NCBI GenBank assembly: GCA_947626025.1
Contig: CANQQQ010000003.1
Span: 1 to 63,584, forward strand
Length of the DNA: 63,584 nt
Direction of reading: 5' to 3'
DNA from: an uncultured Clostridia bacterium
GTDB lineage: Bacteria > Bacillota > Clostridia > TANB77 > CAG-508
Under the pieces are notes generated by a model. The model worked only from the letters and a program-made list of their open reading frames with translations. It had not been told where the DNA came from and did no database searches. This document shows, piece after piece, positions 60,018 to 63,280 of this stretch; the stretch's first letter is position 1; each line of letters opens with the position of its first letter. The translations under genes and the position numbers were made by a program.

Positions 60018-61526
60018 CTATACATTTTTTATATCTTTTCTCACAAAACTTTCAAATGTTGTTACTAATATTGCAATTATTGTAATTGCACAAATTGCTA
60101 TTGAAAATCCTAAAGTCATACCTTGAATTGGAGGTAAACTTCCATAAGCATATTGCGTTAAATCCCAATTTAGTGTAGGAATAAATCTTATCCACTTTGC
60201 TTGGAATAATATGACTAGCTGTTGCACAATACTAGAAACAAAATATAATAAGAAGGATACAACAATTGCTATCGCTGTATTTGCGCTTAAAGTACCTATC
60301 ATAAATGCAACTACTGCTAGAATTATAATTAATGGGCATATTTTTAATAAATTGATAAACATATATGCAAATACATTCATCGTAACTATTGAGTTTGTAC
60401 TATAATTATAAATTATTACTGGAATATTTATTGTATTAAATCCATAGGTAAATCCTGTAAATATTACTTCTATTATAGTAATAACTAATATAGAAATAAT
60501 TAGAGCAATTAAACAAGCAATAAGTTTTGATGCTAGAATTTTTCTTCTGCTATAAGGTCTTGCTAATAGTAGTTTTATTGTTCCTTTATTAAATTCTTCA
60601 CTTATGATTGTACCTGTTAGCATTATTGCTATTATAATGGTAAATAATAATCCATTTCCAGTTGTAAATAAATCCTTTAATGAATCTGAAGCTGTCATAT
60701 TTGAACTTATACCGTTCTCAATTTTGTATTTAGTAATATTAAATGATGACAACATATCTTGATATTGTATCTTTGAATTATAATCAAAATCTTTTGATTC
60801 TTTTTCTTTATAATTGTTTTCATCAATATCATAACTATAGTTAGTATATATTATAGATTCTGCATAGCTTTCATATTGTTGTAATAAGTCATCAAAATTT
60901 TCATCCCCATAGCAAATATCTTTTTCTAATCTCCACTCTAATACTTGAATTTTTATTTTTAATATTTCTATTTCTTGTTTAAGGCTCTTTATGGTATTGA
61001 CATCTGTTACCTTTTCTATTGTATCTCTGTTAATTTCTAGTTGTTCTTTTGTTTGTACTAAAGTTTCTTCTGCAAAAGATTTCCAATCACCAGTGTCTAA
61101 TTTTTTTATAACATCATTATACTCTGCCTGTAGTTCTTCTAATGATAAATCTGGATTACTTGCATACATGCTCAATCCATTTTTATAATAATTTATATCC
61201 GTTATTAGATTACGTAAATCTTCTTCTATTATGGTTGATTGCCATGAATTTTCTCCGTATTTTTTTTGCAGTTCTAGACATTCTATTTCAGATTGTGTTA
61301 TACTATACATTTGTTTTCCCTCTTCTGTTGATTTATCTATTTGATCTAAATATTCTTGTTCCATTTCTAGTTGTAAATCAAAATAAAAAGAATTCATATT
61401 AAGATTATCTATAAATTTAATTAAAGCCATTCCTGCTATTGATAGTATTAGATAAATTATTAATATTACATATATAGCTTTTTTACTAAATATTTTTATC
61501 AATTCATTTTTTACTAAATTAAACAA
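60018..61526 (-). CDS. ABC-2 type exporter permease
   Basis: LVKNELIKIF, large extracellular loop, IISEEFNKGTIKLLLARPYSR. Confidence 0.9.
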   Translation of the reverse strand: MFNLVKNELIKIFSKKAIYVILIIYLILSIAGMALIKFIDNLNMNSFYFDLQLEMEQEYLDQIDKSTEEGKQMYSITQSEIECLELQKKYGENSWQSTIIEEDLRNLITDINYYKNGLSMYASNPDLSLEELQAEYNDVIKKLDTGDWKSFAEETLVQTKEQLEINRDTIEKVTDVNTIKSLKQEIEILKIKIQVLEWRLEKDICYGDENFDDLLQQYESYAESIIYTNYSYDIDENNYKEKESKDFDYNSKIQYQDMLSSFNITKYKIENGISSNMTASDSLKDLFTTGNGLLFTIIIAIMLTGTIISEEFNKGTIKLLLARPYSRRKILASKLIACLIALIISILVITIIEVIFTGFTYGFNTINIPVIIYNYSTNSIVTMNVFAYMFINLLKICPLIIILAVVAFMIGTLSANTAIAIVVSFLLYFVSSIVQQLVILFQAKWIRFIPTLNWDLTQYAYGSLPPIQGMTLGFSIAICAITIIAILVTTFESFVRKDIKNV

Positions 61527-62427
61527 TTTTATTACCTCCTGTCTTTTTTAAAAAAGCTTCTTCTAGTGTTATGATTTCCTCCTTTACACTGTAAATATCT
61601 ATGTTGTTATTAACTAATTTCTTTATTATCTCAGCTGTTTCTTGTTCAGTCGCTGAAATATTGAACTCATTATTGTTTAAAATAGTTACTGCATTTAATA
61701 ATGTTGATATTTTGCTTGTATCATTTACTCTAAATAACACATTATTTTTATTTGTTTCTTCTTTTAATTCATTAATATCTTTAGTGTCAATTACTTCTCC
61801 ATTTTTTATAATACATACCTTTGTGCAGAAATTATCTAATTCAGCTAAATTGTGACTAGAAATCAATACTGCCATTTTTTCTTCTTTAGCTAACTTTTGT
61901 ATAAGTTCTCTTAACTCTTTTATTCCTTCTGGATCTAATCCATTTGTTGGTTCATCTAAAATCAATATATTAGGTCTATGAATAATTGCTTGCGCAATAC
62001 CTAATCTTTGTCTCATTCCTAAGGAATATTTTGAAACTTTATCATTAATTCTTGATTCTAGTCCTACTAGTTTTACAACTTCATCTATTCTAGTTTTTTC
62101 GATATTTTTATATAGATTTGCAATTAATTGTAAGTTTTTATATCCTGATAAATACATGTATAAATCAGGATTTTCAACTATTGCTCCTACTCTTTCTATT
62201 GCTTTTTCAAAATCTTTCTGTATATCATATCCATTAATTTTAACAGTGCCTTTATCAATTCTTTGAAGCCCTAAAATAAGTTTAATTGTTGTAGTTTTTC
62301 CTGCGCCGTTAGGTCCTATAAAGCCCAAAATATCTCCACTTTCTAGTTTTGTTGACACATCTTTTATTATTGTTTTTTTTCCAATCTTTTTAAATAGATT
62401 ATTACACTCTAAAACAACATCTCCCAC
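61519..62427 (-). CDS. ABC exporter ATP-binding protein (BcrA/lantibiotic-immunity type)
   Basis: GPNGAGKTT, YSLGMRQRLGIA, LDEPTNGLD, SSH. Confidence 0.93.
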   Translation of the reverse strand: MGDVVLECNNLFKKIGKKTIIKDVSTKLESGDILGFIGPNGAGKTTTIKLILGLQRIDKGTVKINGYDIQKDFEKAIERVGAIVENPDLYMYLSGYKNLQLIANLYKNIEKTRIDEVVKLVGLESRINDKVSKYSLGMRQRLGIAQAIIHRPNILILDEPTNGLDPEGIKELRELIQKLAKEEKMAVLISSHNLAELDNFCTKVCIIKNGEVIDTKDINELKEETNKNNVLFRVNDTSKISTLLNAVTILNNNEFNISATEQETAEIIKKLVNNNIDIYSVKEEIITLEEAFLKKTGGNKIV

Positions 62428-62794
62428 TTTATTCCCTCCTTTATTTCTGCTTATAATCTTATCACTTATATATTTTTATTTCAATATCACTCTAAAAAAA
62501 GCAAATATGTAAATGTTTTCCTACATGCCTCCACTTGTGGAAACCTTTATTAACAAATATACCACTTCCACCAACACGTATGTTGTTATAATCAGGTAAA
62601 CAGATAACATATTCTTGTTTTATATTTTCATGAAATAATTTTTTAGTCGAAGAATATATATTCAATAAATATAATGCATATAGTTAAATAGTACAGATTA
62701 GGACGTGACGAAGTGATAACAACATCCACGATACACCGTAATGTAATACAGGAGTAATTTTATATTTTTTTGCAAAAAAATGTTTGCTTTTTTA

Positions 62795-62823
62795 TTGTTT
62801 TATTGTAAAACATATGTTATACT
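62795..62823 (+). promoter_or_regulatory. Promoter for the small hydrophobic peptide
   Basis: TTGTTT-17 nt-TATACT with TG extension. Confidence 0.6.
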
Positions 62824-62899
62824 ATCTGACATAGGAAATGATAATAATCAGATGTGGTTTTGCTACCAATTTTTACGAATCTTCGTAGGAGAGGTGGTG

Positions 62900-63019
62900 A
62901 TGTTTATGGTTAAAGTAATACTATTTTTTATTATAGCATTTATATTATCTTTAACATTAAACGTTGCCTTGGCTACAGTTCTTTATAAGAACTGGGTTGA
63001 TAAGCAACTACATAAATAA
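62900..63019 (+). CDS. Small single-TM peptide, candidate type I toxin
   Basis: AGGAGAGGTG RBS; MFMVKVILFFIIAFILSLTLNVALATVLYKNWVDKQLHK; the track ORF start at 62780 is too far upstream. Confidence 0.7.
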   Translation: MFMVKVILFFIIAFILSLTLNVALATVLYKNWVDKQLHK

Positions 63020-63106
63020 TAAAAACTCACATCTGTAACTTTGACGAATAGATGTGAGTTTTCACGTATTTTCGGCAAAACCACGTTTGTGGATTTGTCA
63101 TTTCCT
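63017..63106 (-). ncRNA. Candidate antisense antitoxin RNA, about 90 nt (ends approximate)
   Basis: Perfect promoter at 63113-63141, no downstream ORF, ends in a 13-bp hairpin plus U-run. Confidence 0.65.
63022..63062. terminator. Hairpin shared by the peptide gene and the antisense RNA
   Basis: aaaactcacatct-15 nt-agatgtgagtttt; the U-tract is longer on the minus strand. Confidence 0.75.
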
Positions 63107-63112
63107 ATTTTT

Positions 63113-63141
63113 ATTATATATAGATTATTTAATTTTGTCAA
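63113..63141 (-). promoter_or_regulatory. Perfect consensus sigma-A promoter
   Basis: TTGACA-17 nt-TATAAT on the minus strand. Confidence 0.85.
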
Positions 63142-63233
63142 ATGCTATTTTTTCAATAATTTCAAATAAGCTATAATATTATATAAAGAAAGCTGCCTTT
63201 ATAGAGTACTAAATCCCATAAAAACGCCTAGAC

Positions 63234-63280
63234 TGGTTGGGGTAGTAGGATTCGAACCTACGCATGTCGGAGTCAGAGTC
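63234..63280 (-). tRNA. 3' 47-nt fragment of tRNA-Gln(CTG), probable att-site duplicate and not a functional tRNA
   Basis: GA-CTCTGAC-TCCGA-CATG-CGTAGG-TTCGAAT-CCTAC-TACCCCA-A-CCA; no D-arm or 5' acceptor strand upstream. Confidence 0.9.

Follow-up and report, generated by a model that had tools for sequence, protein, structure and literature searches.

The 63,584-nucleotide (nt) stretch of DNA analyzed here (the window) comes from contig CANQQQ010000003.1 of GenBank assembly GCA_947626025.1, an uncultured Clostridia bacterium. Two convergent transcription units can be read from the sequence in its region 62790–63145, and we interpret this locus as a chromosomal type I toxin–antitoxin module of an unannotated family. 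The toxin messenger RNA (mRNA) would be closed as a panhandle by pairing between its two ends, and the antitoxin RNA would attack the 3′ strand of that closure; we assign this reading a probability of roughly 0.6. The type I anatomy proposed in a preliminary description of the window is borne out by a hydrophobic peptide open reading frame (ORF) with its own promoter and ribosome site, together with an overlapping antisense RNA that has a stronger predicted promoter. A comparative analysis of relatives supports the existence of the predicted end-to-end pairing.

Complementary Ends of the Toxin mRNA

The pairing consists of two nested long-range helices, H1 and H2. Their strands, and their behavior in an alignment of 118 copies of the module, are as follows.

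62831–62844, + strand: box 1, the 5′ strand of H1 (AUAGGAAAUGAUAA), formed by the first bases of the toxin mRNA; from the inverted-repeat search, column conservation 0.967
62849–62864, + strand: box 2, the 5′ strand of H2 (CAGAUGUGGUUUUGCU), from the inverted-repeat search; its alternative partner is the left arm (63022–63035) of a hairpin shared by both RNAs
63074–63089, + strand: 3′ strand of H2 (GGCAAAACCACGUUUG), conservation 0.955; contains the palindrome CCACGUUUGUGG, which is stem-loop 1 of the antitoxin
63095–63108, + strand: 3′ strand of H1 (UUGUCAUUUCCUAU), conservation 0.972 over 63098–63108
62831–62844 / 63095–63108, + strand: H1, 95.2% of alignment cells paired, 4 pairs changed on both sides
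62849–62864 / 63074–63089, + strand: H2, 97.6% of alignment cells paired, 2 pairs changed on both sides

The repeat search returned three complementarities, all of which had been claimed in the preliminary description with exact cores and coordinates that proved correct. The segment 62831–62844 matches 63095–63108 (14 nt, 93%); nested within this repeat, 62849–62863 matches 63075–63089 (15 nt, 87%); and 62849–62861 also matches 63023–63035 (13 nt, 85%), which overlaps the left arm of the shared hairpin. All three mismatches in the H1 and H2 repeats are G·U on the + strand. Short motifs of this kind are individually not rare in the AT-rich window, but their nested arrangement is far beyond chance.

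The transcript 62830–63112 folds to −104.2 kcal/mol (z = −13) and the transcript 62830–63066 to −71.4 kcal/mol (z = −7). The 46-nt extension (63067–63112) thus adds −32.8 kcal/mol, compared with −8.7 ± 2.3 kcal/mol for shuffled extensions, none of which (0 of 300) was as good. H1 and H2 together comprise 30 base pairs (bp), and the base-pair probabilities of the fold-back are 0.97–0.98. In the fold of the short mRNA (62830–63066), box 1 has no other partner. Box 2 pairs there with the end of the coding sequence (62852–62858 / 63006–63012), a pairing that was not counted as conserved because it is lost in the L079-clade sequences as read.

Does this complementarity reflect pairing between the ends of one RNA, or a 5′ sequence that the two RNAs merely share? 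The + and − starts lie in the same box, so that both readings are possible, and homologs were therefore needed to separate them. The relatives examined were the best 160 of ~700 loci; 118 distinct modules were aligned with MAFFT on sequence only, and 124 unique modules were used for a survey of promoters.

The preliminary description had let the fold-back depend on its conservation in homologs. It is conserved, at the pairing frequencies listed above and with 6 pairs changed on both sides; when the partner strand was slid by 1–3 columns, only 44–51% of the cells remained paired. The covariation score of H1 and H2 was reached by none of 500 shuffles. In the L036/L038/L049 clade, GGA is changed to GAG in both arms (AUAGAGAAUGA), and L004 and L018 (G·U), as well as L138, show wobble intermediates of this change. 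A seven-member clade that includes L079 and L081 carries GUGG changed to ACGG in both arms, and in a third variant a 5′ GAGAA pairs with a 3′ UUCUCC with one base bulged. The RNAalifold consensus recovers H1 and H2 without a hint. Furthermore, the conservation of the arms (0.955–0.972) is at the level of first and second codon positions, whereas the hairpin loop and the spacer reach only 0.71–0.72; with the segment from the −10 box to the start included, these less conserved parts range from 0.63 to 0.72.

The kind of mismatch tells which strand is paired. Pairing within a + strand RNA tolerates G·U and not A·C, and for a − strand RNA the reverse is true. H1 and H2 contain 392 G·U cells versus 45 A·C cells; ~35 of the latter are an artefact of the bulged variant having been aligned without a gap, leaving ~10 that are genuine. 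Read as + strand RNA, the helices are 95–98% paired, and read as − strand RNA, 86–88%. The box positions that differ constantly (62842/63097, 62851/63087 and 62853/63085) are all G·U on the + strand and alternate with Watson–Crick pairs in some members (GC:7, UA:15, CG:10), and one-sided variants that retain pairing are more frequent than disruptive ones. Since such wobble pairs are valid on the + strand only, at least some of the toxin mRNA should therefore pass 63062 and reach at least 63108. We conclude from these comparisons that the helix probably forms within a + strand RNA and that a fraction of the toxin transcripts would pass the hairpin.

Predicted Toxin Gene and Antitoxin RNA

The remaining elements of the two transcription units are given below.

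62795–62823, + strand: toxin promoter, read from sequence; −35 TTGTTT (62795–62800), 17-nt spacer, extended −10 TGtTATACT (62815–62823)
62865–62895, + strand: short helix in the 5′ untranslated region (UTR), in which ACC (62865–62867) pairs with GGU (62893–62895) of the Shine–Dalgarno region in the minimum-energy folds
62900–63019, + strand: peptide gene, 39 amino acids (aa) plus stop (MFMVKVILFFIIAFILSLTLNVALATVLYKNWVDKQLHK); hydrophobic helix and basic tail, from the ORF translation
63012–63106, − strand: predicted antitoxin RNA of ~95 nt, with an unpaired 5′ tail, a small stem-loop and a terminator hairpin
63022–63062, no strand assigned: shared hairpin, with a perfect 13-bp stem (63022–63034 / 63050–63062) and a 15-nt loop; from the repeat search
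63113–63141, − strand: antitoxin promoter, from the promoter scan; TTGACA (63141–63136), 17-nt spacer, TATAAT (63118–63113), 12/12 matches to the sigma-70 consensus

The toxin mRNA is predicted to start at ~62830/62831 and to have a 5′ UTR of 70 nt. A promoter pattern was found for the toxin in 116 of the 124 unique modules, and in 114 of these 116 the equivalent −35 and −10 boxes lie 7 nt upstream of box 1, with the extended TG present in 67. The antitoxin promoter is the stronger and the less variable of the two in this set: TTGAC[AT]-17/18-TATAAT is present in 117 of the 124, always 4 nt before the box. The antitoxin start is predicted at ~63106, i.e., inside the right-hand arm, so that both RNAs begin at the identical box AUAGGAAAUGA.

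The peptide has a hydrophobic stretch of ~26 residues followed by the basic tail, and its gene is preceded by the Shine–Dalgarno sequence GGAGAGG (62888–62894). The second ATG (62906; M3) is invariant across the peptide family and may be the true start, yielding a 37-aa peptide. In two loci, L079 (2920–3222) and L151 (1420–1722), GTG replaces the first ATG (equivalent to window 62900–62908). Upstream of the gene, the ACC/GGU helix encloses a small 5′ UTR hairpin (62870–62878 / 62883–62891) in the minimum-energy folds; among the 118 copies, the former is 99.4% paired and the latter 92.8% paired, with 2 compensated pairs.

The antitoxin is predicted to end at ~63012 with the shared hairpin followed by the U-rich tail UUUUUAUUAUUU, and its predicted fold has an energy of −28.4 kcal/mol (z = −5.3). 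Neither strand received a terminator call from the promoter/terminator scanner, because that program accepts loops of 3–8 nt and this hairpin has one of 15 nt. Over its whole length, the antitoxin is complementary to the final ~95 nt of the long toxin mRNA, a segment comprising the hairpin and both 3′ arms. Promoter prediction agrees with the earlier proposal that the antitoxin targets the 3′ strand, as the predicted antisense RNA covers exactly that strand. The two RNAs cofold at −211.9 kcal/mol versus −132.6 kcal/mol apart, favoring the duplex by ~79 kcal/mol.

Shared Hairpin and the Alternative Partner of Box 2

The shared hairpin is 96.4% paired among the 118 copies, and 7 of its 13 pairs are changed on both sides between two alleles, CUCACAUCU/AGAUGUGAG (allele A) and UAAACCAUU/AAUGGUUUA (allele B). 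After the stem, the − strand carries a mean of 7.4 U in 9 positions with a minimum of 6, whereas the + strand tract has a mean of 5.2 and a minimum of 3, with only UU in L002, L071 and L072. Because the U-rich tail is constant on the − strand and variable on the + strand, the hairpin appears to be primarily the terminator of the antitoxin. On the + strand, where 4–5 U follow it in 75 of the 118 copies, it is predicted to be an internal hairpin or a leaky, weak terminator of the toxin mRNA.

Could box 2 serve as an antiterminator? When growing transcripts were folded, those ending at 63036–63049 paired box 2 with the left arm (63022–63035). At 63066, formation of the hairpin displaced box 2; at 63090, box 2 paired with 63074–63089; and at 63112, box 1 closed. 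The competing pairing between 62849–62861 and the left arm, which the preliminary description had pointed out, is the minimum-energy state of the nascent RNA and is conserved with both hairpin alleles: it appears in 118 of 118 transcripts truncated before the right arm, averaging 14 bp in copies with allele A and 10 bp in those with allele B, compared with 4.1 bp for shuffled arms.

These model folds make antitermination by box 2 a prediction, and a weaker one than the panhandle itself. Nascent box 2 would pair with the left arm of the hairpin and thereby favor read-through, by which the mRNA would gain its 3′ lock. In a fuller version, the 5′ UTR would be a co-transcriptional switch in which box 2 mimics the right arm and blocks termination, and the activity of the antitoxin promoter decides whether the 3′ lock is made. 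Past the hairpin, the polymerase would transcribe into the start site and −10 box of the antitoxin, and the 3′ end would be set either by the end-to-end helix plus UAUUUAUUAUA or by polymerase sitting on the antitoxin promoter. We consider this switch doubtful. If real, it would tie transcriptional interference to the locking of the RNA, which is not described for any type I system.

The hairpin region also differs among paralogs. Within one genome, coding sequences are 89–100% identical, whereas the loop and spacer are only 18–75% identical. The tandem copies of L012 (2923–3225 and 4694–4996) have 100% identical coding sequences and identical arms, but their hairpin alleles differ, with stems 33% identical; likewise, the paralogs L004/L038/L057 and L041/L047/L049 combine near-identical coding sequences and arms with a divergent hairpin allele, loop and spacer. 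Such divergence suggests either that cassettes were exchanged or that selection acted against cross-reacting antitoxins, and the pattern fits the overlap region as a possible carrier of partner specificity.

Predicted Lock on the Translation Start

A further helix involves the ribosome site.

62896–62968, + strand: translation-start lock, in which 62896–62915 (the end of the Shine–Dalgarno region, both ATGs and the next codons) pairs with 62949–62968 (codons 17–23)

This lock is present in every minimum-energy fold, whether of the short form, the long form or the long form with the antitoxin target masked. In the RNAalifold consensus, its 19 pairs are nearly invariant, and one-sided changes almost always retain pairing. 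Translation is thus predicted to be held off by a separate, conserved lock on the start region and not by the fold-back.

In hok/Sok and AapA/IsoA, 5′–3′ fold-back controls translation. The preliminary description had cited these systems in proposing a fold-back switch or lock here, but the folds do not predict such control of translation: the start region keeps its partner 62949–62968 in the short, long and antitoxin-bound forms. Since this partner is identical in all forms, the ribosome site is predicted to stay paired even when the panhandle opens. A translational switch by tightening of an anti-Shine–Dalgarno helix, in the style of bsrG, was also considered and rejected, the antitoxin-masked fold being unchanged at the start region.

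Proposed Mechanism

We propose that the toxin mRNA starts at ~62830, encodes a 39-aa membrane-type peptide and runs through the hairpin 63022–63062 to at least 63108. Its last ~35 nt (63074–63108) would then pair with its first ~35 nt (62831–62864), making the ~280-nt RNA a panhandle. Burying both ends in this way would presumably stabilize the toxin mRNA. By analogy with bsrG/SR4, the antitoxin would make its first contact through the complementary loops of the hairpins; in no other part do paralogs vary as much. As the duplex spread, it would displace the 3′ strand from the 5′ UTR and create a substrate of ~95 bp for RNase III; with its 5′ end exposed, the toxin mRNA would decay.

Several points weigh against this reading. 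The 3′ end of the toxin mRNA is placed by evolution alone. The family is a young one, its peptides sharing at least 77% identity, and the compensatory changes go back to some three or four clades and not to many independent events. No conserved terminator follows 63108, where only the −10 and −35 boxes of the antitoxin are found before unrelated flanks. With 4–5 U after the hairpin on the + strand in most copies, many transcripts may stop at ~63066 and never form the panhandle, and RNA polymerase on the strong antitoxin promoter could block read-through. Because the predicted fold around the ribosome site is the same with the panhandle open, the advantage of the closure is a presumed one and may lie in mRNA stability or in accessibility to the antitoxin. 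Finally, the toxicity of the peptide and the function of the antitoxin are presumed from the anatomy of the locus.

Alternative Explanations

The alternative that survives best is a toxin mRNA of the par/Fst kind that ends at the shared hairpin (~63066). The right arm would then be a 5′ domain of the antitoxin only, there would be no fold-back, and the shared 5′ sequence would stem from an inverted duplication or from a common factor that binds both RNAs. The 4–5 U after the hairpin in 75 of the 118 copies would suit such an end, and so would the start of both RNAs at the same AUAGGAAAUGA box; moreover, the right arm is intact in copies that lack the 5′ arm (L064, L068) or half of the toxin gene (L037 copy 2, L067 copy 1). 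However, a mere requirement for identity gives no reason for wobble-compatible differences, and the conserved ones (62842·63097, 62851·63087, 62853·63085) are all G·U on the + strand. Nor does it fit that pairing-preserving one-sided variants rise to higher frequency than disruptive ones, or that box 1 is otherwise partnerless in the short mRNA. We therefore regard an mRNA without fold-back as unlikely.

Less probable still is that the antitoxin acts in trans on the 5′ region of the toxin mRNA, in the style of RNAII/fst or SprA1AS/sprA1, with the boxes serving contact. The antitoxin stem-loop arm CAAAUCCACA would meet box 2, or CCACAAAC would meet the start region GUUUAUGG. Read from sequence, antitoxin GACAAAUCCACA forms 10 of 12 pairs with UGUGGUUUUGCC, and CCACAAAC forms 7 of 8 with GUUUAUGG; the L079-clade variant CCGUAAG also pairs with UUUAUGG. 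This arrangement would also agree with the remark in T1TAdb that families whose antisense RNA misses the ORF interact outside the overlap (PMC8594479). On the other hand, the best duplex between the antitoxin 5′ domain and the first 96 nt of the toxin mRNA has an energy of −15.3 kcal/mol versus a shuffled mean of −17.9 kcal/mol, 394 of 500 shuffles being at least as good, and the start region and box 2 taken alone are likewise not significant. Pairing in trans of the par or SprA1 type was rejected because it is no better than that of shuffled sequence, and it leaves box 1 and its covariation unexplained.

The least probable explanation is that the inverted repeats act as DNA, either as paired operators just downstream of both starts or as terminal repeats of a small mobile element: the repeats are indeed symmetric at +1 to +35 of both transcription units, and the ~380-bp module is multi-copy at many unrelated intergenic sites, often at contig ends, but the conserved block does not stop at the repeats and takes in both promoters, neither a regulator nor a transposase gene accompanies the module in the loci whose flanks were examined, and symmetry of the DNA gives no reason for G·T to be commoner than A·C, whereas ~390 versus 10 were observed.

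Comparison with Known Systems

The closed toxin mRNA with a 3′-attacking antitoxin resembles bsrG/SR4 of Bacillus subtilis most closely in architecture, by analogy of layout. In bsrG, nt 1–35 pair with nt 232–262 as helix P1 (PMC3834814). The terminator loop of SR4 contacts loop 3 of bsrG, binding leaves nt 1–33 single-stranded, and decay is RNase III-dependent (PMC3834814). The preliminary description did not recognize the layout from a described clostridial system; bsrG/SR4 has this same 5′–3′ helix with a 3′-overlapping antitoxin. A closure stripped by a 3′-overlapping antitoxin is therefore not unprecedented, and any novelty may lie in the way the toxin mRNA acquires its 3′ end and in whether box 2 drives read-through.

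The two systems share a hydrophobic peptide, of 38 aa and toxic in bsrG and of 39 aa and predicted to be toxic here. They also share a convergent antitoxin, transcribed from the stronger promoter and antisense to the 3′ portion of the toxin transcript. In both, the first ~35 nt pair with ~30 nt near the 3′ end, the 3′ strand lies within the antitoxin target, an internal toxin hairpin mirrors the antitoxin terminator, and first contact is made between loops (here by analogy). Antitoxin binding frees the 5′ strand of P1, or would free its counterpart, and the Shine–Dalgarno sequence is sequestered. They differ in that no peptide or RNA similarity is detectable (Pfam, NCBIfam and Rfam at E ≤ 10) and in that bsrG has its own terminator after P1, with the start of SR4 beyond it, whereas here the helix ends at the antitoxin start and −10 box, with no terminator after it. 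Here, too, the antisense overlap barely reaches the ORF, unlike in bsrG. Furthermore, SR4 tightens the Shine–Dalgarno helix from 4 to 8 bp (PMC3834814), a change that is not predicted here.

The par system of Enterococcus faecalis pAD1 (fst RNAI/RNAII) likewise has convergent promoters, one bidirectional hairpin common to both RNAs, repeats at both RNA 5′ ends and an antisense RNA that lies off the ORF (PMC8594479 and general knowledge). As regards a terminator for both RNAs, the hairpin here is shared, but its + strand U tract is weak and variable and covariation indicates read-through. In par, direct repeats give complementary 5′ ends that pair in trans over the start codon, whereas the repeats here are inverted and give 5′ ends of the same sense. 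Pairing in trans is no better than chance here, and the peptide has no match to the Fst family in Pfam at E ≤ 10.

With hok/Sok of plasmid R1 and aapA1/IsoA1 of Helicobacter pylori, the module shares the 5′–3′ end closure of the full-length toxin mRNA and an internal start lock. For hok, a fold-back inhibition element is described that closes the full-length mRNA 5′–3′, with the start region locked internally (PMC3834814). The antitoxins of both systems bind the 5′ or start region of a 3′-processed mRNA, trimming of the 3′ end being what activates translation and this binding, in contrast to an antisense RNA directed at the 3′ strand of the fold-back, and the fold-back there hides the ribosome site, which is locked here by another partner.

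The Clostridioides difficile modules CD2517.1-RCd8, CD2907.1-RCd9 and CD0956.2-RCd10 also have a clostridial host and convergent genes that overlap at their 3′ ends (PMC6563280). By description, their toxins are 50–53 aa, compared with 39 aa here, and they have long 5′ UTRs and lie within prophages or beside CRISPR (clustered regularly interspaced short palindromic repeats) arrays (PMC6563280). The present module lies between housekeeping and transfer RNA (tRNA) genes and has no blastn match in phage records. A 5′–3′ closure of the C. difficile modules is not described in the review PMC6563280. Judged by sequence, the module would be a new family and no member of the bsrG/SR4, par, hok or AapA1 families, of an architectural kind that is already known.

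Family, Distribution and Neighborhood

The peptide falls into 26 protein clusters at 77–95% identity, none of them named. We confirmed 322 module loci in species-representative genomes and found 365 in metagenome contigs. The listed species-representative hosts are all uncultured gut Bacillota known from metagenome-assembled genomes (MAGs), most of which bear the label Clostridia; the animals of origin are rabbit, human, goat, deer and chicken. Several MAGs carry 2–4 copies, and on some contigs two copies lie 1–2 kb apart. The conserved block spans from the −35 box of the toxin to the −35 box of the antitoxin, and the flanks are unrelated between loci.

IMG/VR yielded a single module among 2.9 million viral contigs (L081, on a 63 kb contig), and a blastn search of the module against phage and plasmid records gave nothing relevant; unlike the C. 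difficile systems, the family is not obviously phage-borne. No curated toxin family was found for the peptide in Pfam or NCBIfam at E ≤ 10, and PHROGs likewise had none. Rfam at E ≤ 10 returned only noise far below the gathering scores (n00280, RAGATH-19 and a tRNA fragment) and no antitoxin RNA family, and a full-text literature search with peptide strings found no paper.

Upstream neighbors of the modules are housekeeping genes (seryl-tRNA synthetase, RNase J, a major facilitator superfamily transporter and a GGDEF/EAL protein). A role in stabilizing an island was considered and set aside, as the upstream neighbors include no integrase or phage gene and the window contains no second copy of the tRNA fragment. 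In the window, two overlapping ORFs (60018–62427, − strand) immediately precede the module. One encodes a 302-aa ATPase of the ATP-binding cassette (ABC) type with the motif GPNGAGKTT, and the other, of 502 aa with several hydrophobic segments, is likely its permease.

Beyond the antitoxin promoter, a tRNA gene on the strand opposite to the toxin is present in 24 of the 41 loci with 3-kb flanks (L001–L081, 40–1900 bp downstream), within ~400 bp in 15 of them. These tRNAs are varied (Gly, Thr, four Leu, Arg, Gln, Met), and read-through from them would run in the antitoxin direction. In the window, a remnant of a tRNA gene can be read at 63234–63279 on the − strand, consisting of the 3′ portion with the T arm, the acceptor stem and CCA. 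Its 5′ half is missing, and unrelated AT-rich DNA follows; ARAGORN gave no call and the Rfam tRNA match is weak. At this position, the syntenic locus L013 carries a different tRNA (Leu-CAA) that is intact, and the remnant resembles a scar left at an attachment site or the result of a rearrangement at a tRNA hot spot. Downstream of the module, many contigs run on for no more than a few hundred bases, and the window itself ends 476 bp after 63108; such ends are expected if a multi-copy module beside tRNA genes breaks assemblies.

Some copies are decayed or variant. In L037:1941–2243 (copy 2) and L067:412–714 (copy 1), the toxin ORF is truncated at its N-terminus and the antitoxin region is intact, and in L064:2923–3225 and L068:2923–3225, the ORF is intact and the 5′ arms are replaced by unrelated sequence. 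These four copies are natural mutants that could reveal what the 5′ arm is needed for.

Implications

The module adds a widespread, unannotated type I family, often multi-copy within a genome, in uncultured gut Clostridia of rabbits, humans and ruminants, whose RNA architecture can be read directly from natural variation. The strand-specific wobble test provides evidence for read-through where a cultured organism and a transcriptome are absent. If antitermination by box 2 is true, termination, transcriptional interference and mRNA locking would be linked in one 280-nt unit. The design of a closed mRNA attacked at its 3′ strand, experimentally known from one Bacillus prophage system, recurs here in an unrelated family, which suggests that it may be a general design for 3′-overlapping toxin–antitoxin systems of Gram-positive bacteria.

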